Notes under the pieces: generated by a model
Databases searched by the model: none
Told to the model about the DNA's origin: nothing
The model's input: the letters and a program-made list of their open reading frames with translations, nothing else
Translations under genes and position numbers: made by a program
Assembly: GCA_002869165.1 (NCBI GenBank)
Contig: PKTK01000001.1
Location: 510,005-574,004, forward strand
DNA length: 64,000 nucleotides
Direction: 5' to 3'
From: Candidatus Parcubacteria bacterium
Lineage (GTDB): Bacteria > Patescibacteriota > Patescibacteriia > Patescibacteriales > UBA12075
Part shown: positions 1,317-64,000 of the stretch, in pieces
How positions within the stretch are numbered: position 1 is the first letter of the stretch
Layout: each line of letters opens with the position of its first letter

Positions 1317-2603
1317 TTACCTACCCCGCCACTGCTTATCCTGTCTAACTAATAATTCTTCAGCTCTTAATGGTTCGGCCATTAGTTCTAGAACTATTTT
1401 TTCCATTCTCATTCCTTGTGAACCTTTAACCAGCATAAGATCATTTTGCTTAATCCTATTTTGCAAGAATTTCCCAGCCTCTTCAGATTTATCAAAAGCA
1501 AATACATCCTCTTCTCTCATGCCATTCTCTTTGGCGCTTCTAGCTATATCCTTTGCCCTTTCACCAACTACTACCAATTTATCAATCTTGCTTTTAGCAA
1601 CGTACTCACCAACTTGCCTATGACTATCAACACTAACAGGACCTAGTTCAAGCATATCTCCAAGCACTGCATACTTTTTTGCTCCTTCATCTATTTTGGC
1701 AATTTTCAATGCGCTAACTGCCAACAAAGCTGATTTTGGCTCAGAATTATAAGTATCATCAATAATACTAGTGTGCTTGATACCTTCTACAACATTGAGT
1801 CTTCCCACAGGAGATTTGTAATCTCGCAGATATTCACATACCTTGTCCAAATTCACGTTATAAATAATACCCACACAAATTGCCGCCAAACTTGAATATA
1901 CTGCACCCAAACCTATCACATTGGGTAATTCCACTCTATGTCTAGCTCCTAGATATTTAAGCTCATAGCCAACACCTTTTAATTTATTTTCCTTGTCGTA
2001 GTTAAAATGGATATTTCTAGCGCTCACTACAGAATTTTCACTTAGTCCAAAAGAAATAACTCTAGCCTCTTATTTTTCTGCCATTTTCTTTGTCCCTTCA
2101 TCGTCAAAATTTATAATTGCATAACCTGCTTTTTCAATTGAAGAAATTAACTTACCTTTCTCAGCTTGTAGTGCTTCCCTGTTTTTAAAATGCTCGAGAT
2201 GAACCGAACCAACCAATGTAGCAACACCAATAATAGGTTTGGCGATTTCTGTTAAATAATCCATATCTCCTGGTTTATCTATCCCCATTTCCAGTATCAA
2301 TATTTCAGGATAATTTTTATCTTCTACTATCAAAAGCCAAAGAACTTTAAAACCGATAATAATCCAACCGAAAATATTTTTACCTGGAGAATAAGAGCCA
2401 ATTATTGTAAGTGGTAGACCAATTTCGTTATTATAATTTTTTTCTGACTGCCTAACGCGCTTCTCTTTTTTTAAAATACTATATATCGCCTCCTTAGTAC
2501 TAGTTTTACCAACCGAACCAGTAATAGCAATCACTGCTGGTTGATATTTTTTCAGTATCAGTTTAGCCCAATACCGAAGTTTTAATTCAATAAATTTTTT
2601 CAT
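1317..2603 (-). CDS. murF: UDP-N-acetylmuramoyl-tripeptide--D-alanyl-D-alanine ligase MurF; ORF-track pieces 2070-2603 and 1317-2027 lie in one frame across an in-frame TAA at 2070-2072
   Basis: Mur ligase P-loop ITGSVGKTSTKE in the N-terminal piece and the Mur ligase C-terminal domain (DDTYNSEPKSALLAV..., VLGDMLELG) in the other. The junction reads ...KKMAEK*EARVISFGLSENSVVSARNIHF. Confidence 0.8.
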
Positions 2604-35356: not shown

Positions 35357-36040
35357 ATGACAGAAGAAAAAAAGACAAAAAACAAGGTATAATTTGACAG
35401 ATTCAAATCATATTCTATCGAAGAAGCTATTATACTAGCAAAAGAATTAGACAAAGCAAAATTTGATGCTTCTGTTGAACTTCATTTCAAACTAGGAATC
35501 GATCCTAGAAAAGGAGACCAACAAATCAGAACTGCCCTATCACTTCCTCACGGAACTGGTAAATCAGTTAAAGTTGCTGCTTTTGTGTCTGATGAAAAAA
35601 TCAAAGAATGTAAAGACGCTGGTGCAGATTTCGTAGGAAATACTGACTTGATTGAAGAAATCAAAAAGACTGAAAAGACTGACTTCCAAGTAGCTGTAGC
35701 AGAACCTGCTATGATGCGTGAATTAGCTCAAATAGCTAAAATTCTTGGAACTCGTGGCCTAATGCCTAGCCCAAAGAACGAAACTGTGACTCCAAATCCA
35801 ACTCAAGCAATCGCTGAGCTCAAAAAAGGTAAAATCAGCTTCAAAAACGATGATGGTGGAAACATTCATGTATCTGTTGGAAAAGTAAGTTTTGATGAAG
35901 CAAAACTAAAAGAAAATATTGATGCCATGATTGACTGTATCAAAAAAGCCAAACCAGCCAAATCAAAAGGAATATATATCAGAAACATCTCTCTAAGTAC
36001 ATCCATGGGGCCAGGTATTAAGGTAATGATTCCGAAATAA
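35357..36040 (+). CDS. rplA: 50S ribosomal protein L1; ATG at 35357, in-frame TAA at 35390-35392 (codon 12); ORF-track piece 35585-36040 is only the C-terminal two thirds
   Basis: [80 protein letters not shown]... is continuous L1 sequence in the frame of 35585-36040. Confidence 0.85.
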
Positions 36041-41492: not shown

Positions 41493-42998
41493 ATGGAATA
41501 CGATGTAATTATCGGCTTGGAAATACATGCTGAACTCAAAACCAAATCAAAAATGTTTTGCGAATGTGATAACAATCCGGAGGGTAAAAAACCAAATGAA
41601 AATACCTGTCCAATTTGTCTTGGACATCCTGGTTGTTTGCCTATTCCAAACAAACAAGCAATAGAATGGACAGTTTTAACTGGTCTGGCACTACATTGTA
41701 AGGTTAATAAATTATCAAAATTTGATAGAAAAAATTACTTCTATCATGATCTACCAAAAGCATATCAGATTTCTCAGTATGACTTGCCTTTTGTGTATGA
41801 TGGCTATATGCAGGTTGATGATACACGGGTTGCTATTACTCGGATTCACCTAGAAGAAGATACTGGCAAAAACACTCATCCAGCTGGCAAGAACTATTCA
41901 TTGATTGATTTCAATAGATCATCAACTCCTCTCATGGAAATGGTAACTGAGCCAACTATAAAATCAGCAGAACAAGCTAAAAAATTCTGTCAACAATACC
42001 AACAAATCTTAAGATACTTGGATATCTCTAATGCTGATATGGAAAAAGGAGAAATGAGATGTGAGGCAAATATCTCAGTGCAAGAGAAAGGTAAATGGGA
42101 ATACTTGGGAAATTGTGAAATCAAGCCAATCGGAGATTATAAACTAAGTCCAAAAGTTGAAGTCAAAAACATCAACTCTTTTAAAGCCGTGGAAAAGGCT
42201 ATCAACTTCGAAATCAAAAGACAAATTGAAGCTCTAGAAGATGGTGAAAAGCTTGTACAGGAAACTCGTGGTTGGGACGAAAACAAAGCAGTAACAGTAA
42301 GCCAAAGAACCAAAGAAACTTCAGCTGACTATAGATACTTTCCTGAACCAGATATTCCTCCAATCAAATTTGAAGCTAGCGAAATTGAAGCTATCAAAGC
42401 CAAACTAACTGAAATGCCACCAGAGAAAAAAGTACGCTTCATAGAGCAATATGACTTTGACGCTGATACTGCTGAGATACTTGTAGCCGACAAGCAAATT
42501 GCTAACTTTGCCGAAAACACAATCTCTGAACTAAGAGCCTGGATTGATTCAAATGGTGATGACTGGGAAAGACAAAAGAAAAAACTTGCCAAAACAGCAT
42601 CCAACTGGCTAACTTCTGAACTATTTAAATATATCAAAGCAGATGGTATGGAAGTAATCAAGAAAATCACGCCAGAAAATTTTGCTGAACTAATCACGCT
42701 AATATATCAAGGCAAGATTAACTCAAGCGCTGGCCAGACAGTACTTGAAAAAATGGCCACTGACGGAGGAGATCCTAGCAATATCGTAGAAGAACTCGGC
42801 CTTGAGCAAATCGATGACGAAGCTGAACTGGAAAAAACCATTCAAAATATTCTAGACCAAAACGCTTCTCAAGTCGAAGAATACAAAAGCGGAAAAGAAA
42901 ACGTTATCCAATTCTTTGTTGGTCAAACCATGTCAGCCACGAAAGGAAAGGCTAACCCTAAAAAAGTAATAGAAATACTAAAAAAACTATTATCATAA
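41493..42998 (+). CDS. gatB: Asp/Glu-tRNA amidotransferase subunit B
   Basis: 501 aa; MEYDVIIGLEIHAELKTKSKMFC, CPICLGHPG, RIHLEEDTGK, and a C-terminal GatB/YqeY domain. Confidence 0.9.
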   Translation: MEYDVIIGLEIHAELKTKSKMFCECDNNPEGKKPNENTCPICLGHPGCLPIPNKQAIEWTVLTGLALHCKVNKLSKFDRKNYFYHDLPKAYQISQYDLPFVYDGYMQVDDTRVAITRIHLEEDTGKNTHPAGKNYSLIDFNRSSTPLMEMVTEPTIKSAEQAKKFCQQYQQILRYLDISNADMEKGEMRCEANISVQEKGKWEYLGNCEIKPIGDYKLSPKVEVKNINSFKAVEKAINFEIKRQIEALEDGEKLVQETRGWDENKAVTVSQRTKETSADYRYFPEPDIPPIKFEASEIEAIKAKLTEMPPEKKVRFIEQYDFDADTAEILVADKQIANFAENTISELRAWIDSNGDDWERQKKKLAKTASNWLTSELFKYIKADGMEVIKKITPENFAELITLIYQGKINSSAGQTVLEKMATDGGDPSNIVEELGLEQIDDEAELEKTIQNILDQNASQVEEYKSGKENVIQFFVGQTMSATKGKANPKKVIEILKKLLS

Positions 42999-43183
42999 AT
43001 CTCTTCGATCGATCCTTTAGGGTTAGCCACAAAAGGAAAGGCTAATCCTAAAAAAGTGATAGAAATACTAAAAAAACAAATGTCGTAAATCTCTTCGATC
43101 GATCCTTTAGGGTCAGCCACAAAAGGAAAGGCTAATCCTAAAAAAGTGATAGAAATACTAAAAAAACTAATGTCTTAAATCTC
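42935..43183. repeat. 90-bp tandem repeat (~2.75 copies) duplicating the last 20 codons plus stop of gatB and 27 nt of downstream sequence
   Basis: agccacgaaaggaaaggctaaccc... starts at 42935, 43025 and 43115. Each copy ends ...EILKK(LL/QM/LM)S-TAA. Confidence 0.9.
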
Positions 43184-47935: not shown

Positions 47936-48622
47936 TTAAACTCTTCTAGGCTTGCGTTGTCTGCAACCATTGTGTGGTTTAGGGGTTACATCTTGAATAG
48001 AAGTAACTACAAGTCCGTTATTATTTAGTGATCTAATTGCTTATTCTCTGCCTGTTCCCACTCCTTTTACAAATACACTCACTTCAGACAAACCAAACTC
48101 TTCCCTTGCCTTGCCTACAGCAATTCTAGTGATAATCTGAGCAGCATATGGAGTAGCCTTTTTAGGTCCTTTAAACCCGGCTATACCAGCTGAAGCCCAA
48201 GAAATAACACTGCCATTTTGATCAGTAAGGGTTACTATAGTATTATTATAAGTTGATTTAATAAAAGCTTTTCCCGTTGGAACTTTTCTGGCTACTTTTT
48301 TCTTTTTCTTTCTTACTTTGCTTTTTTTATTCTTTTGCTCGTTTTCGGTCTTTTTCTTTTCTAATTTCTTGATGATTTCTTCTGGCAAAGTTTCAAGTCC
48401 TGAAGAGTCTTTTTCGGTTTTTAGACTAACCTCATCTTTTGAATCGCGTGCAAGCGATTCATCCGCCGCACCGGAGGTGCTTTGGGCGGATTCGTTTTCT
48501 TTAGTATCTACATCAACATTAGCAGTTTTATCTGCCTTTTTTTCTACTTTGTCACCACCTTCGGTCTCAGTAGTTTTTGCGTCTTTTGTTGTTTTTTCTT
48601 CACTCATAGATATGAATATCAC
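47936..48622 (-). CDS. rpsK: 30S ribosomal protein S11 with a ~100-aa charged N-terminal extension; frame crosses an in-frame TAA at 48041-48043
   Basis: ORF-track piece 48041-48622 ends ...VKGVGTGRE. The same frame continues as [37 protein letters not shown] (47936), which is the conserved S11 C-terminus. Confidence 0.85.
48437..48496. repeat. GC-rich two-hairpin element, copy 2, inside the rpsK N-terminal extension
   Basis: ttttgaatcgcgtgcaagcgattcatccgccgcaccggaggtgctttgggcggattcg; about 76% identical to 8517-8580 with paired stem changes. Confidence 0.7.
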
Positions 48623-50334: not shown

Positions 50335-52218
50335 TTACTCAATGATTGCTTTCACTCTTCTAACTCCAGCAGATGAACTCTTTTCCTTGGCGATACGGAA
50401 CTTGCCCCCAATTTCACCTGTATGAGTTACGTGAGGACCACCACAAATCTCTTTAGAAAAAATATCATCCCCCTCACCTACTTGATATACCTTTACCTTC
50501 TCACCATATTTTGATTCAAATACACCAGTTGCGCCTTGAGCTTTGGCCTCATCTACGCTCATTTCAGTAAATGTTACTGGCATGTCTTTTTCTATTACTT
50601 CATTTACTATTCTTTCAATTTCTGCTTTTTGTTCATCAGTTATTTTTTCACCATGTGAAAAATCAAAACGTAATCGCTCAGCTGTGATATTAGATCCCTT
50701 TTGCTGTACATGATCCCCCAGCACTCTCCTCATAGCTTCAAGCATCAAATGAGCGGTTGTGTGAAGCCTGGTTACTTCTTCACTAGAATCAGCCAAACCA
50801 CCTTTAAACTTACCAGCTGAAGCTGTACGAGAAAGATCCTGATGTTTTTTCATTTCAATTTCAAAAGACTTCATATCAATCTCCATGTTTTTCTCTTGAG
50901 CCATTTCCTCTGTCATTTCTATTGGAAAACCATAGGTTGTAAATAATTTAAAAGCTACTTCACCTGGAATTATTTTATTGGCAGATATTTTGGACATTGT
51001 CCATTTATTAAATTCTTTTTCACCTTGCACTAATGTCTTACGAAATTTATCTTCCTCTTTATTCATTTCATCTATAATTCTTTCTTGATTATCAACTAGC
51101 TCTGAATAATTTTCTTTATAATCTTTAATAACAATCTTGGCTACTTCAGATGTAAAGTTGGACTCAACTCCCAAGACATATGCAAAACGAACAGCACGAC
51201 GAATAAGTCGTCTAGTAAAATATCCTTGATCTTTGTTAGATGGATTAGCTCCGTCACAAATCAAAAATACTGAAGCCCGCAAATGATCCATAATAACTCG
51301 AAAAGCTCTAGTCTCATCATCTTTTTCACCATATTTTTTACCTGCTATTTCTTCTATTTTATTTTTTAGCTCAGTAAATACATCACACAAAAACACATCT
51401 GGATTATCAGCTACGGCTACAGCCAAACGCTCAAGCCCTCCACCAAAGTCAATATTTTTACCTTTAAGCTCTTCAAAGCCCTTAGCTGTTTTTTGGAATT
51501 GCATAAACACATTGTTCCCAATCTCCAAGAAACGTCCACAATCACATGCTGGATGACATGGTTCATCTTTCCAAGGAGAATTCTCATGAAGCTGTAAGTG
51601 TTCCCCAAAATCCCAAAACATCTCAGAATCAGGTCCACCTGGTTCACCTTCCGGCATATTCTCATGTACACCAACCCGACTCCACCAATTTTCTTTTTCG
51701 TTATAATAAAATATCCGACCACCCTGCATGCCCTTTTTTTCTGCCATATCAACAGCTTTAGCTTCTATTCCATCTTTCTTAAATTCTTCTTGCCACAATT
51801 TTACTGCCTCATCGTCTTTTGGGATACCATACTTTTCATTGCCTCGATAAACTGAAACATAAAGACGTTTAGGGTCTAATCCAAGCTCACTAGTTAAAAA
51901 TTCATACATCCAAGGCACTTGCTCGGCCTTGAAATAATCCCCCAAAGACCAATTGCCAAGCATCTCAAAAAATGTAGTATGTCTATTGTCTCCAACATCA
52001 TCTATATCCATAGCTCGAAAACATTTTTGTGAATCAGCAATTCTAACACCTTCTGGATGTTTCTCGCCCAAAAGATAATGCACCATAGGCTGCATACCAT
52101 AACCTGTAAAAAGAGTTGATGGGTCATTTTCTGGAAGAAGCGAGGCGCTCGGCACAATAGCATGTCCTCTATCTTTAAAAAAATCTAAATATTTTTGTCT
52201 TAAAACGTTTGAATTCAT
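50335..52218 (-). CDS. alaS: alanine--tRNA ligase (short form without the C-Ala domain)
   Basis: Start at MNSNVLRQKYLDFFKDRGH. Motifs FTGYGMQP, RHTTFFEMLGNWSLGDYFK and editing-domain HTTAHLM. The ORF-track start adds 5 residues. Confidence 0.9.
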   Translation of the reverse strand: MNSNVLRQKYLDFFKDRGHAIVPSASLLPENDPSTLFTGYGMQPMVHYLLGEKHPEGVRIADSQKCFRAMDIDDVGDNRHTTFFEMLGNWSLGDYFKAEQVPWMYEFLTSELGLDPKRLYVSVYRGNEKYGIPKDDEAVKLWQEEFKKDGIEAKAVDMAEKKGMQGGRIFYYNEKENWWSRVGVHENMPEGEPGGPDSEMFWDFGEHLQLHENSPWKDEPCHPACDCGRFLEIGNNVFMQFQKTAKGFEELKGKNIDFGGGLERLAVAVADNPDVFLCDVFTELKNKIEEIAGKKYGEKDDETRAFRVIMDHLRASVFLICDGANPSNKDQGYFTRRLIRRAVRFAYVLGVESNFTSEVAKIVIKDYKENYSELVDNQERIIDEMNKEEDKFRKTLVQGEKEFNKWTMSKISANKIIPGEVAFKLFTTYGFPIEMTEEMAQEKNMEIDMKSFEIEMKKHQDLSRTASAGKFKGGLADSSEEVTRLHTTAHLMLEAMRRVLGDHVQQKGSNITAERLRFDFSHGEKITDEQKAEIERIVNEVIEKDMPVTFTEMSVDEAKAQGATGVFESKYGEKVKVYQVGEGDDIFSKEICGGPHVTHTGEIGGKFRIAKEKSSSAGVRRVKAIIE

Positions 52219-52267
52219 ATAATTATAATGCAAATCTACAAATATTATTATTCACATACGTGCTATA

Positions 52268-57291: not shown

Positions 57292-57531
57292 TTAGCTTTC
57301 GTTTTCTCTTAAATCATACCAACTCTTAAATGCTCCATTTAAAAAAATTTCATTCTGTAACTCCAATTGAATACTTGGATGACGGCTAAAGATTGATACT
57401 TGTGAATAATCACCCATATTCTTATAAAATACACTATAGTCGGTTCGTTTTAGATCAATAGACCCCAATGAAGCTTTAAAAAATCCTAATTCCTTATTTG
57501 GAACATTCAATATAATAGCTTCATTTTCCAT
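57292..57531 (-). CDS. small hypothetical protein (79 aa)
   Basis: SD aaggagggaaaaATG; promoter candidate at 57578-57606. Confidence 0.5.
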   Translation of the reverse strand: MENEAIILNVPNKELGFFKASLGSIDLKRTDYSVFYKNMGDYSQVSIFSRHPSIQLELQNEIFLNGAFKSWYDLRENES

Positions 57532-57713: not shown

Positions 57714-59732
57714 ATGGCTAAAAAAGAAGAAAAAAAAGTAATAAAGAAAAAATCAGACTACGGCGCTGAGGCGATTACAGTTTTGGAGGGACTGGATCCA
57801 GTAAGAAAAAGACCAGGTATGTACATTGGCTCAACAGCTAGCTCTGGACTACATCATTTAATCTGGGAAGTAGTAGATAACGGCTTTGATGAAGCTATGG
57901 CTGGACACGCTGATACTGTCACTATTACCCTACAAGAGGATGGCATGGTTCGAGTAGAGGATAATGGGCGTGGTATCCCAGTTGACAAACACAAAGTAAC
58001 TGGTGTATCTGCACTTGAAACAGTTTTAACCAAACTTCACGCTGGTGGTAAATTTGGTGGCGAAGGATCAGGCTACAAAGTATCTGGTGGTCTTCACGGT
58101 GTTGGTGTATCAGTAGTAAATGCTCTATCAAAACACTTAAAAGCCGAAGTACACCGAGATGGTAAAATCTGGACCCAGGAATACAAAATTGGCAAACCAA
58201 AAGGAAAAATCAAATCAGCTGGCACCACCAAAAAAACTGGAACTGTTATCACCTTTTTGCCAGATGACAGTATTTTTACTGAAACCGAATTCAAATGGGG
58301 CACCATTCTAGACCATCTAAGAAGACAAGCATATCTAACCAAGGGAGTAACTGTTAATATTCACGACCGCAGAAAAGAACATAGCCAAAAAGATTATTCA
58401 TTTTATTTCGAAGGTGGTGTTCTTTCTTACATCAAAAATTTAAACTTAAATAAAACTGTAAAAAACCCAACTATTTTCTATGTTGAAAAAGAAATTGAGA
58501 ACTCAAAGATTGAAATAGCACTCCAATACAACGATGAGTACAATGAAACTGTTCTACCTTTTGCCAATAATATCCCAAATCCAGAAGGTGGTACCCACCT
58601 AGTTGGCTTTAGAACTGCTCTAACAAGAACTCTCAATTCATATGCTAGAAATCAAAAGCTTCTCAAAGAAAAAGACGAAAACCTAGCCGGTGAAGATGTT
58701 CGAGAAGGCTTAACTGCAATTGTTTAAGTTAAGCTAACCGAACCACAATTTGAAGGGCAAACAAAAGGAAAACTGGGAAACGCTGAAGTAAAAACTCAAG
58801 TTGAACAAATATTCGGTGAATCTTTTGCAACGTTTTTAGAAGAACACCCCAAAGAAGCAGAAGCAATCATTGGTAAATGTATCGTAGCCTCTCAAGCTCG
58901 TATTGCTGCAAGAACTGCCAGAGCTTCTATTCTACGAAAAGGCGCTCTAGATGGTATTACTCTACCAGGTAAACTAGCTGACTGTTCTAGCCGAAAAGCC
59001 GAGGAGTCTGAAATATTTATCGTGGAGGGCGACTCCGCTGGAGGTTCTGCCAAACAAGGACGTGATAGAAAATTCCAGGCCATCCTACCCCTACGTGGTA
59101 AGATTCTAAACGTAGAAAGAGCTAGATTAGATAAAATGCTTGCCAATAACGAAATTAAAAATCTAGTAATTGCACTAGGTACAAACATCAATGATCAATT
59201 TGATATAGAAAAACTCAGATATCATAGAATCGTGATCATGACAGATGCTGATGTTGATGGTGCTCATATCAGAACCTTACTATTAACCCTTTTCTTTAGA
59301 CACTTTAATGAATTAGTGGCTGCTGGACATCTTTACATCGCCCAACCACCACTATATCAAGTCAAAAAAGGTGCCAAAGTAGAATACGCTTATTCTGAAG
59401 CTGAAAAAGAAAAAATTATTAAATCATTGGGTGGGCACGTAGATGAAGAAGTAAAAGAACTTGAAGAAGGTGAGGAAGAAAACGAAGAAGAAACAAAAAA
59501 GAAAGCCAACGCCAGAATCTCTATTCAGCGATATAAGGGTCTTGGTGAAATGAACCCTGAACAATTATGGGAGACAACTATGGATCCTGAACAACGTGTT
59601 ATGAGCCAAGTTACCATAGAAGATGCTGCTTATGCTGATAAAATATTTGATATGCTCATGGGTGGAGATGTTGCTCCAAGAAAACACTTCATTCAAACAC
59701 ATGCTAAGAAGGTTGAAAATCTTGATATATAA
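57714..59732 (+). CDS. gyrB: DNA gyrase subunit B; one frame throughout, with an in-frame TAA at 58725-58727 (ORF-track pieces 57714-58727 and 59022-59732)
   Basis: GHKL ATPase motifs ([23 protein letters not shown]), [12 protein letters not shown], Toprim [36 protein letters not shown], and C-terminus ...AKKVENLDI. Confidence 0.9.
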
Positions 59733-61272: not shown

Positions 61273-63522
61273 ATGAACTATAAATTTGCCCAATTCATTC
61301 AAACTCCAGGAAAAAAGGCTAAATCTTTTTCCGATGTTTTTGTAGCTCAACCAGATTCTCACAAAGAAGAATTGGCTGGTAAGCTTTTTGTGGTTCTGGA
61401 GATAAACAGTAAAGATACCAAGGGTTTAAAGATTATTAATTTTTTACTTGATTCAATTGTTCAAAATTTTTACCAAAATGAAAAGCTGATTTTGCGAGAA
61501 CGCTTATCTACTTTAAAAATTGAACATATTTTCGAAGCTAGTTTAGCTAAAACTAATAAACATTTTACAGACTTTCTAAAAAACGAAAGAATAAAGATCA
61601 ATGCTAGCGATCTAAACATTACTACCGGAGTAGTTTTTGAAAATGAAATTCATATCGCCAATATCGGCACCAACAAAGCTCTATTAATTATCCCCAATAC
61701 TAAACCAGAAGAGAATCAAGAAAGATTCAAATTAGTTGACATCTTCAAATCCTCAGGTCACGAAGAAGAAAAAATCGATAGAATATTTTCCAATGTCATA
61801 AGCGGTCATATTCCAGAGAAAGCTGCTTTGCTTATTTGCAACGAAACTCTACCAGAATATATTTCTAAGAATAAATTAAGTGAAATTATCTCTTCCTTGC
61901 CACCAATCGGTGCTACCGAACAAATAAAAAACATCACTAAAAACATAAATGCTTATGTTTCTTTTTTGGGCGTAATCATAAAAAGTACTGCCACTCCAAA
62001 AACTCAAGTTGAGGCACGAGAAAGGGTCAAAATAAATAGTAACGAATCTATCAACAAACTAAACACCACTGAAAGTGAGACCGAACAATTACTTACTCCA
62101 TCAGGCATGATAAACTTCAAAAAATGGCTAGGTGTGCTTAGTTTACCCTTTTCCTCCTTTTCTAATAACAAAGCGAAAAAATCAGCTCTAGGATTAAAAG
62201 ACAAAATATTAGTCAAAAGAATATCAACCAGTAAAAAAATATCAGGACTACTTTCGAATTTCTTTTCCAATTTATTTATTGCTTTTTCCAGAATTATTAG
62301 AAACATCAACCAAGCAAAAATATTTAAAACAATCTTTTCTCTTGCGGGACTTAAAATATTTTTTGGAAAAGTTCAAAACTTCTTTGCCAGGGGAAAATTA
62401 AATAAAAGAAAAATACTACTTGCTTTAAGTATAATTTTAATTGTTGTATTCATCTTTAATATAACTCGAACCAAAGAAAAAAATGAAAAAATCGTTGAAG
62501 AACAAAGCTATTCCGAATTAACTGAAATGATTGAAAAAAAACAAAACCAAGCTGAAGCTAGTTTATTATACTCAAATGACGAAGGAGCCAAAAAACTTTT
62601 TGATGAGATCAATTCTTTAATCGAAGAATTACCAACCGAAACCGAAGAACAACAAAGCCAATACAATGAATTTAAAGAAAAATTTAACGTTCAATTGGAA
62701 AAAATCAGACGGATCACTCGCCTAGATGATGCAACACTTATTGACAACCTTAACAATCTAAACTCCCGCGCCAATCCTCAAAACATAACCCTAATTGCCA
62801 GTAAAGGAAATCTATATATTTCTGATGCAACCAATAAGTCTTTTTACATTACTGACATCTTTGAAAAACAAAGTACAACTATAGCTGAACTTGATAAAGA
62901 GATTATTAGACTTGATTATCCTTTATTAATTCAAGAGGAAGAAAAAAATGAGATTATTTATTTTAATGCAGAAAACCTAATTTCATTAAGCGCTGAGGAA
63001 AAAACTACCGAAATATACTCAATCAATCTAGCCAGCTCCGATGTAGTTGATATGGATATATACAATTCTAACATATACCTCTTAAACCCTAGTGCTGGTC
63101 AAATATATAGACACCAAAGAACCGGCAATAACTTTGGCTCACCTACTCCGTGGATCAATGATGGCTCAAATATTGAAAACGCAATTAACCTTGCTATTGA
63201 CGGAAATATCTATATACTCTTCAGTGATGCCAGTATTAAACGATATCTAAGAGGATCTGAGGTTGATTTTGACCTTGAGCTTTGCGATCCACCTCTTGAG
63301 TCCCCTACTAAAATAAAGCTATCTCAGGAAGAAGACTTTCTTTATATTCTAGAACCAAAAAATCGTCGTATGTTAGTTTATAGTAAAGACGGGCAATTTC
63401 AAATGCAATACATGAGCGAAACCTTTGATGATCTAAAAGATTTTGTTGTTAATGAAGAAAACAAAAAACTATATTTCCTAAACGGAACACTAGTCTATCA
63501 AACTGAAGCCAGTCATTTTTGA
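61273..63522 (+). CDS. large hypothetical protein (749 aa) with a central TM segment and beta-rich C-terminus
   Basis: Long uninterrupted ORF with TM helix ILLALSIILIVVFIF near residue 385, followed by a terminator. Confidence 0.6.
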   Translation: MNYKFAQFIQTPGKKAKSFSDVFVAQPDSHKEELAGKLFVVLEINSKDTKGLKIINFLLDSIVQNFYQNEKLILRERLSTLKIEHIFEASLAKTNKHFTDFLKNERIKINASDLNITTGVVFENEIHIANIGTNKALLIIPNTKPEENQERFKLVDIFKSSGHEEEKIDRIFSNVISGHIPEKAALLICNETLPEYISKNKLSEIISSLPPIGATEQIKNITKNINAYVSFLGVIIKSTATPKTQVEARERVKINSNESINKLNTTESETEQLLTPSGMINFKKWLGVLSLPFSSFSNNKAKKSALGLKDKILVKRISTSKKISGLLSNFFSNLFIAFSRIIRNINQAKIFKTIFSLAGLKIFFGKVQNFFARGKLNKRKILLALSIILIVVFIFNITRTKEKNEKIVEEQSYSELTEMIEKKQNQAEASLLYSNDEGAKKLFDEINSLIEELPTETEEQQSQYNEFKEKFNVQLEKIRRITRLDDATLIDNLNNLNSRANPQNITLIASKGNLYISDATNKSFYITDIFEKQSTTIAELDKEIIRLDYPLLIQEEEKNEIIYFNAENLISLSAEEKTTEIYSINLASSDVVDMDIYNSNIYLLNPSAGQIYRHQRTGNNFGSPTPWINDGSNIENAINLAIDGNIYILFSDASIKRYLRGSEVDFDLELCDPPLESPTKIKLSQEEDFLYILEPKNRRMLVYSKDGQFQMQYMSETFDDLKDFVVNEENKKLYFLNGTLVYQTEASHF

Positions 63523-63558
63523 TTCACAAAACATATAACACAAAACATATATCAAAAA

Positions 63559-63597
63559 AACCGCTAACAATTTAATGTTGCGGTTTTTATTTTTTTA
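63559..63597 (+). terminator. rho-independent terminator
   Basis: aaccgc-taacaatttaatgt-tgcggtt followed by tttattttttt. Confidence 0.7.
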
Positions 63598-63933
63598 AAA
63601 AAACAATATACTCCACCAGTCTACTTTTGAAGACTCAGGGTCTTGAGCTTCTTTTTCAAAGATCAACAATGAAGCAAGTATTCTATTGTTTGTTGCTGGA
63701 GAGATTATAGCTACACCCATTGGTGTTTCTCGCATCAACGTCCAACCTTCTTCAAATAAATCACCCGGGGATACTACTTCTTCTGTCGCTAAATCTATAA
63801 AAGACTTACTTGCACCATGATCAGAATACTGAACAATTTTTGCTTTTTCATTTTTATTTCTTTAGATTGTGGTGATTTTTGTTTGCCAGAAACCAATATA
63901 ATTTTTACAGATTATTTTTCTATATTTAATCAT
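63595..63933 (-). CDS. hypothetical protein (112 codons) whose frame contains an in-frame TAA at 63862-63864
   Basis: The ATG (63931-63933) overlaps the stop of the upstream gene (ATGATTAA). Reads MIKYRKIICKNYIGFWQTKITTI*RNKNEKAKIVQYSDHGASKSFIDLATEEVV...WWSILFF. There is no start codon for 40 codons after the TAA. Confidence 0.4.
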
Positions 63934-64000
63934 TTTTGAGCTCAGCAATTTTTTCATTAATGCCGGCTTCATATCTATTTTCTTCAAACTGAAAAAGTGG
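63926..64000 (-). CDS. C-terminal end of a gene entering from the right edge
   Basis: Open frame ...PLFQFEENRYEAGINEKIAELKND-TAA. Confidence 0.35.
   Translation of the reverse strand, partial: PLFQFEENRYEAGINEKIAELKND

Follow-up and report, generated by a model that had tools for sequence, protein, structure and literature searches.

The 64,000-nt stretch of Candidatus Parcubacteria DNA analyzed here (the window; G+C 34%, with ordinary long ORFs under table 11) holds six in-frame TAA codons, and the one at 63862-63864 on the minus strand raises the question of whether it interrupts a gene, is decoded as an amino acid or lies outside any coding sequence. The initial annotation took it for another interruption, in a hypothetical gene translationally coupled to its neighbor. 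The upstream minus-strand gene, whose 186-aa product ends in AELKND, stops at TAA 63928-63926, and the ATG at 63933-63931 shares bases with this stop (ATGATTAA). From this ATG, 23 codons (MIKYRKIICKNYIGFWQTKITTI) lead to the flagged TAA, after which the same frame stays open for 88 sense codons until TAA 63597-63595, all as first described. As had also been noticed, the 88-codon frame lacks a start in its first 40 codons, the earliest canonical ones being TTG 63738 (codon 42) and ATG 63735 (codon 43). Ahead of the flagged TAA the frame is open for 48 codons and overlaps the upstream gene at its 3′ end, and ATG 63933 is not the earliest ATG in this open stretch. A terminator-like hairpin lies 12 nt past the stop of the 88-codon frame and is common to the convergent 749-aa gene; the automatic scan did not list it. 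The window has no Rfam match and no tRNA gene. The features are collected in Table 1.

Table 1. Features at and around the flagged TAA, and the other in-frame TAA codons of the window
Feature	Position	Strand	Remark
186-aa orphan gene, 3′ end	63926-64000	-	Full gene at window-equivalent 63926-64486; protein PLX28147.1, hypothetical protein C0583_02870, Candidatus Parcubacteria bacterium (NCBI listing)
23-codon mini-ORF MIKYRKIICKNYIGFWQTKITTI	63865-63933	-	Codon score and position-1 G given in the text
Sigma-70-like match, TAGAAA-16 nt-TATATT	63895-63922	-	Inside the mini-ORF; weak evidence
Flagged TAA, next base A	63862-63864	-	Closes the frame 11 nt upstream of ATG 63851
Single window-versus-public difference within 63376-64000	63856	+	Window A, public C
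ATG in +1 frame with A-rich leader	63849-63851	-	Proposed true start
Two A5 runs, 63848-63844 and 63841-63837	63837-63848	-	ATG AAA AAG CAA AAA TTG
ATT	63835-63837	-	In-frame near-cognate alternative start, codon 9
88 sense codons and stop	63595-63861	-	Body of a small orphan gene or relic
46-aa ORF from ATG 63735	63595-63735	-	Sole piece annotated by public gene callers
Terminator-like hairpin CCGCAACA / TGTTAGCGG	63554-63583	-	One bulge, then T7; read from sequence
In-frame TAA, murF	2070-2072		
In-frame TAA, rplA	35390-35392		
In-frame TAA, rpsK	48041-48043		
In-frame TAA, 158-aa hypothetical gene	57292-57294		
In-frame TAA, gyrB	58725-58727		After 337 codons, followed by 334 more in frame

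Exact-protein look-ups recovered public assemblies of the same strain from JGI (a 129-kb contig), from ENA (one contig of 501 kb and short ones of low coverage) and from Logan. Between 63376 and 64000, the flagged TAA and both A5 runs included, the sequence is the same in four public assemblies apart from base 63856. That base belongs to the private G:C>T:A changes and is not part of the TAA; on the minus strand the public contigs have AAAGAAAGAAAAATG there and the window has AAAGAAATAAAAATG. The flagged TAA is therefore part of the real sequence of the strain and lies outside the series of substitutions described below, so that its listing with the others, as one more interruption like them, is not supported: those are window-private. 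Indeed, all five interrupted genes are intact in the public contigs (672, 428, 227, 223 and 158 aa), which read TCA at four of the sites and GAA at the fifth. A base-by-base comparison over about 63.6 kb gave 35 differences from the public consensus in otherwise identical sequence, of which 32 are G:C>T:A, and 29 of these 32 lie in a pyrimidine-C (Y-C) context. Besides the five nonsense changes (TCA>TAA four times, GAA>TAA once), the coding changes are mostly radical missense (for example P>H and G>C, three times each, and G>V, R>I and D>Y). Several of them alter motifs that are conserved in AlaRS and in an ABC-F ATPase, and only five synonymous changes fall in confident genes. The nonsense share, about 5 of 25 changes in confident genes, is consistent with the 12.6% of coding G:C sites that are stop-capable. 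The JGI contig and an ENA contig of 2.9x coverage have private C>A changes of their own. In the JGI contig, a private TCA>TAA at L002 13057 (window-equivalent 64329) splits the 186-aa gene into calls of 52 and 117 aa, and about six further private C>A-type changes lie elsewhere. A mild oddity of the window is that TCA is the target of four nonsense changes out of five, although GAA outnumbers it threefold among codons (673 versus 217); in the full set of changes, the TCA context is 2.3-fold enriched (9 observed, 3.9 expected).

G>T and C>A noise of this kind arises from 8-oxoguanine library damage or from MutY/MutM-type repair deficiency. The private differences resemble it in their G:C>T:A bias, their Y-C context and the lack of any sign of selection, a likeness that concerns the other TAAs and not the flagged one. 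From the comparison of assemblies, the five other TAAs thus appear to be unselected substitution noise, of an oxidative-damage-type error or a mutator spectrum, rather than recoding. The alternative, in which TAA is sense-decoded or read through (by reassignment, an ochre suppressor or programmed readthrough) and the interrupted genes are made full-length, draws on the count of six in-frame TAAs within 64 kb, with the essential genes murF, rplA, rpsK and gyrB accounting for four, and on the fact that four of the five substitution-derived TAAs stand for TCA (Ser). A reassigned codon would be shared by other assemblies, would have lost its use as a terminator and would stand for one amino acid, and none of this is seen. 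At each of the five sites two or three otherwise identical public contigs lack the TAA, the in-frame TAAs stand for both Ser and Glu, and TAA ends 29 of the 47 confident genes, with TAAA the commonest stop tetranucleotide. Furthermore, the remaining private changes are mostly radical missense, such as P>H, G>C and G>V at conserved residues, and hence unselected, the window encodes no tRNA, and the flagged TAA does not belong to the substitution set. Sense decoding of TAA, whether by recoding or by readthrough, is already largely refuted by these observations, and we regard it as extremely unlikely. Recoding in CPR bacteria takes the form of UGA>Gly (code 25) in Gracilibacteria and Absconditabacteria, and phages recode UAG or UGA. 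The window looks similar at first sight, with several in-frame stops in essential genes, but it differs in the codon, which is TAA and still the main terminator, in the privacy of the copies to one assembly and in the mixture of Ser and Glu. A literature search on readthrough in CPR bacteria found no papers. The case is mainly a caution: a CPR genome that shows six in-frame TAAs, several of which fall in essential genes, might be taken to use a new genetic code, and a comparison of same-strain assemblies is what identifies five of them as private G:C>T:A changes and leaves the sixth as an ordinary stop before a small orphan ORF.

Several measures argue that the 88 codons past the flagged TAA are coding, in agreement with the earlier view that such a stretch is unlikely to be non-coding. 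Only 1 of 2263 stop-to-stop intervals (0.04%) in the sense-strand off-frames of window genes is at least 88 codons long. Codon usage was scored as a log-odds trained on 30 long window genes against a null without stop codons, each training gene being scored leave-one-out. The 88-codon frame scores 0.232 per codon, to be compared with 0.174 ± 0.123 for real 88-codon windows and −0.118 ± 0.125 for spurious open ones, none of which (0/23) reaches 0.232. The signal is present throughout: the first 40 codons, which hold no canonical start, score 0.304 (0 of 278 spurious windows as high), the first 21 score 0.275 (matched by 0.5% of spurious open windows) and the last 46 score 0.221. When only sense-strand off-frames serve as the null, 0 of 63 windows of 40 codons and 0.9% of those of 21 codons reach the scores of this frame. 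Base composition by codon position is similarly gene-like, with G at position 1 in a fraction of 0.34 of all 88 codons and 0.42 of the first 40, the value for genes being 0.32. Together, these properties indicate that the 88-codon frame is very probably a gene now, or was one until recently.

A single-sequence AlphaFold model, made with no alignment and only moderately confident (mean pLDDT 64.6), places strands at residues 8-14, 19-23, 28-30, 40-45 and 50-55 together with a short helix (pLDDT 70-81), and leaves residues 62-88 unstructured with pLDDT below 50. The folded part begins right past the A runs and the ATT at codon 9 and lies mostly before codons 42-43. Because the confident strands are mostly ahead of the canonical starts and the 5′ 40 codons are coding-like, the start of the gene must be irregular. 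The frame peptide SFIDLATEEVVSPGDLFEEGWTLMR also lies upstream of codon 42. Two public contigs (JGI and ENA) have a 46-aa ORF annotated here, a truncated call of the 88-codon frame; two of the three long public contigs are without a gene call at this place.

The 23 codons upstream of the flagged TAA behave differently. Their codon score of −0.034 falls between those of real genes (0.176 ± 0.183) and of spurious open frames (−0.170 ± 0.174), and only 1 of the 23 codons has G at position 1. So low a count is reached by 0.6% of real 23-codon windows, by 1 of 52 gene N-termini and by 13.9% of open off-frame windows. The mini-ORF also contains a sigma-70-like match that fits at 9 of 12 positions, in a region that has 7 such sites where 4.5 are expected. 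Where the frame overlaps the 186-aa gene, the clear coding frame is that of the 186-aa gene itself, up to its stop. The mini-ORF is most likely an untranslated spacer or leader, and its reading as the N-terminus of the downstream product is not supported by its composition. Similarly, what had been called translational coupling comes down to the ATGATTAA overlap, which does exist but opens a frame that is shut after 23 non-coding-like codons. Nor does the TAA have a coding signature on both sides, as programmed readthrough would lead one to expect: the downstream codons show it and the upstream 23 do not. A frameshift fusion of the frame to the upstream 186-aa gene was also considered and was dropped, since the 186-aa frame is clearly coding up to its stop.

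Where, then, does the small gene start? In the window, an SD is missing from 35 of the 47 confident genes, whose starts follow A/T-rich leaders (aaaaatATG, for example); a minority of window genes have strong AAGGAGG sites. A leader of this prevailing type, AAAGAAAGAAAA, precedes the ATG at 63851, 11 nt past the flagged TAA and in the +1 frame. As sequenced, this ATG opens a frame of 18 codons only (MKKQKLFSILIMVQVSLL), which scores −0.027, no better than the mini-ORF. One additional A in either A5 run, however, would join ATG 63851 to the 88-codon frame in an intact 85-aa ORF, the product of which would read MKKQK-IVQYSDHGASKSF..., that is, MKKQK-IVQYSD... or MKKAK-IVQYSD..., and would enter the first modeled strand (KIVQYSD) at once. 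A late frameshift that would join a signal peptide (MKKQKLFSILIMVQVSLL) to the body was rejected, because the 88-codon frame is the coding one across the same 18 codons (0.267 versus −0.027).

We therefore propose that TAA 63862-63864 would lie outside any gene, in a short leader between two minus-strand orphan genes, and that the second of these, the body of which would be the 88-codon frame at 63861-63598, would begin past the TAA as a gene or a very recent relic. Its likeliest start would be ATG 63851, the frame of which differs from that of the body by one base over the two A5 runs. A full-length product would then need a −1 slip of tRNA-Lys from AAA 63839-37 to AAA 63840-38; if no slippage takes place, the locus would be a fresh frameshift pseudogene. 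The in-frame ATT 63837 would be an alternative start. That the gene or relic begins past the TAA, mainly at ATG 63851 with a 1-nt frame break and less likely through ATT or slippage, is in our judgment probable. Both the choice of start and the present expression of the gene are what we infer from these features. Thus, of the earlier proposal of an interrupted gene, a coding-like ORF with an irregular start is retained, and the TAA is most likely a stop in the leader and not the interruption.

The way in which the frame break might be crossed can be compared with known systems. The locus resembles small genes and pseudogenes frameshifted at short homopolymers, which use, where functional, −1 slippage of the dnaX/IS-element type on A-rich sites (A AAA AAG): here an ATG in good context directly precedes AAA AAG CAA AAA, the body is in the −1 frame, tRNA-Lys could re-pair one base back, and an extra A would restore a single ORF. 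The sequence contains G AAA AAG and C AAA AAT but no canonical X XXY YYZ heptamer, and re-pairing from AAA to AAA would be perfect for a single P-site tRNA at the A runs. Unlike dnaX and the IS elements, the heptamer here is G AAA AAG at codons 2-3, with no upstream SD or significant structure (folding of 63940-63780 gives a z-score of −0.6, and no frameshift-stimulating structure was found), and there are no homologues that would show conservation. A plain 1-nt deletion explains the locus equally well. Initiation at AUU occurs in E. coli infC and pcnB. The present case is alike in that ATT 63837 is the sole table-11 start of the 88-codon frame before the first modeled strand and follows an A-rich leader, and unlike in that another frame has a strong ATG 14 nt upstream. 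Both programmed slippage and initiation at ATT are rare. It is rather unlikely that the orphan protein is currently made without a canonical in-frame initiator, whether by the tRNA-Lys −1 slip, by a start at AUU 63837 or by readthrough of the TAA, the last of which, giving a 111-aa product, is much the least likely of the three. Expression without a start in its own frame would make the ORF a minor case of slippage or of non-canonical initiation, in a Parcubacteria genome that is SD-less.

Searches for relatives bear on whether the frame is a gene and on where it starts. The 88-aa product found nothing in a 5.8-billion word-index search, and exhaustive HMMER against 1.84 billion representatives returned, apart from its own 46-aa fragment, only two highly repetitive proteins. 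The latter (678 and 1265 aa, with 4 and 8 summed stretches at 24-30% identity) were set aside as repeat or low-complexity artifacts. Neither the 88-aa nor the 186-aa protein has a Pfam match, the database matches of the 186-aa neighbor are fragments of its own gene from the same strain only, no paralogue was found in about 100 kb of the same genome, and Foldseek of the model against the PDB gave no analogue (best E 0.13, TM about 0.2). Scans of metagenome and viral contigs yielded no match. A scan of genome contigs yielded a single locus in a distant Patescibacteria MAG, with 39% identity on the 749-aa neighbor, and there (L001, 12407-13850) a DNA methyltransferase and endonuclease pair lies between a 789-aa gene and rplL. 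The presence of this R-M pair at a position taken here by two orphan ORFs suggests a variable, lineage-specific spot. In the collections searched, the 88-codon frame and its 186-aa neighbor thus appear to be orphans. As no homologue was found, the start is fixed by no comparative evidence.

Three other accounts of the locus have to be set against the proposal that the gene begins past the TAA. In the account closest to the original one, a 111-codon gene starting at ATG 63933 was lost to a nonsense mutation, now fixed, that turned a codon such as TCA, GAA or TAC into TAA by the route commonest in this lineage prone to G:C>T:A, and is now a nonsense pseudogene. The frame is indeed continuous through the TAA, its upstream piece is open and has an ATG where the preceding gene ends, and openness of this extent arises by chance before only about 9% of stops for at least 23 codons and 1.2% for at least 48 (sense off-frames). 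This openness, with its ATGs, is what a nonsense-interrupted gene would be expected to show, and it counts against the leader reading. Furthermore, TAA-creating G:C>T:A changes occur frequently in the assemblies of this strain, the TCA>TAA in the 186-aa gene of the JGI contig being an instance. Against the 111-codon gene stand the missing coding signature of the mini-ORF and the promoter-like site within it, and ATG 63851 with its A runs provides a start at the cost of a 1-nt change. By our own rough weighting of likelihood ratios, which is a personal estimate and not a computed one, the open upstream stretch favors the 111-codon gene about 13-fold, while the off-frame ATG with its A runs counts about fivefold, the position-1 G about sevenfold and the promoter match about 1.5-fold against it. 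As a rough inference, the frameshift model with ATG 63851 is thereby preferred about fourfold to the nonsense-interrupted gene, which is unlikely.

Alternatively, only the short ORF would be a gene, of 47 aa from TTG 63738 or of 46 aa from ATG 63735, and the 41 open codons that precede it would have arisen by chance or be left over from a once longer gene. Both starts are canonical, a GAAGGT lies 7 nt ahead of TTG 63738, and the ORF is the sole gene call in the public contigs; yet the first 40 codons outscore the last 46, at a level that no spurious window attains, the confidently modeled strands are mostly located before residue 43, the stretch from residue 62 onwards has pLDDT below 50, and SD motifs are rarely used in this genome. 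We consider this somewhat less plausible than the nonsense account. Finally, the frame might be no gene at all but a chance open frame in the 330-nt 3′ UTR or intergenic stretch between the 186-aa gene and the terminator. The want of any homologue among 1.84 billion representative proteins beyond its own 46-aa fragment would fit this, as would the two long public contigs of three that carry no call and the lack of a Pfam match, but the open length is like that of genes, as are the codon usage and the base composition by codon position, and a chance frame is very improbable. A gene or recent relic that begins past the flagged TAA thus accounts best for the coding signature and for the composition of the upstream piece.

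Two further features of the window were recorded in passing. The 3′ end of gatB is duplicated at 42932-43183 in a 90-nt tandem repeat (2.8 copies, 93% matches), with about 30 final codons of the gene and its stop recurring twice downstream (…ATKGKANPKKVIEILKK..S*). The alanyl-tRNA synthetase gene at 50335-52233 encodes 632 aa in the window and 627 aa as called in the public contigs, presumably shorter than a typical bacterial AlaRS.
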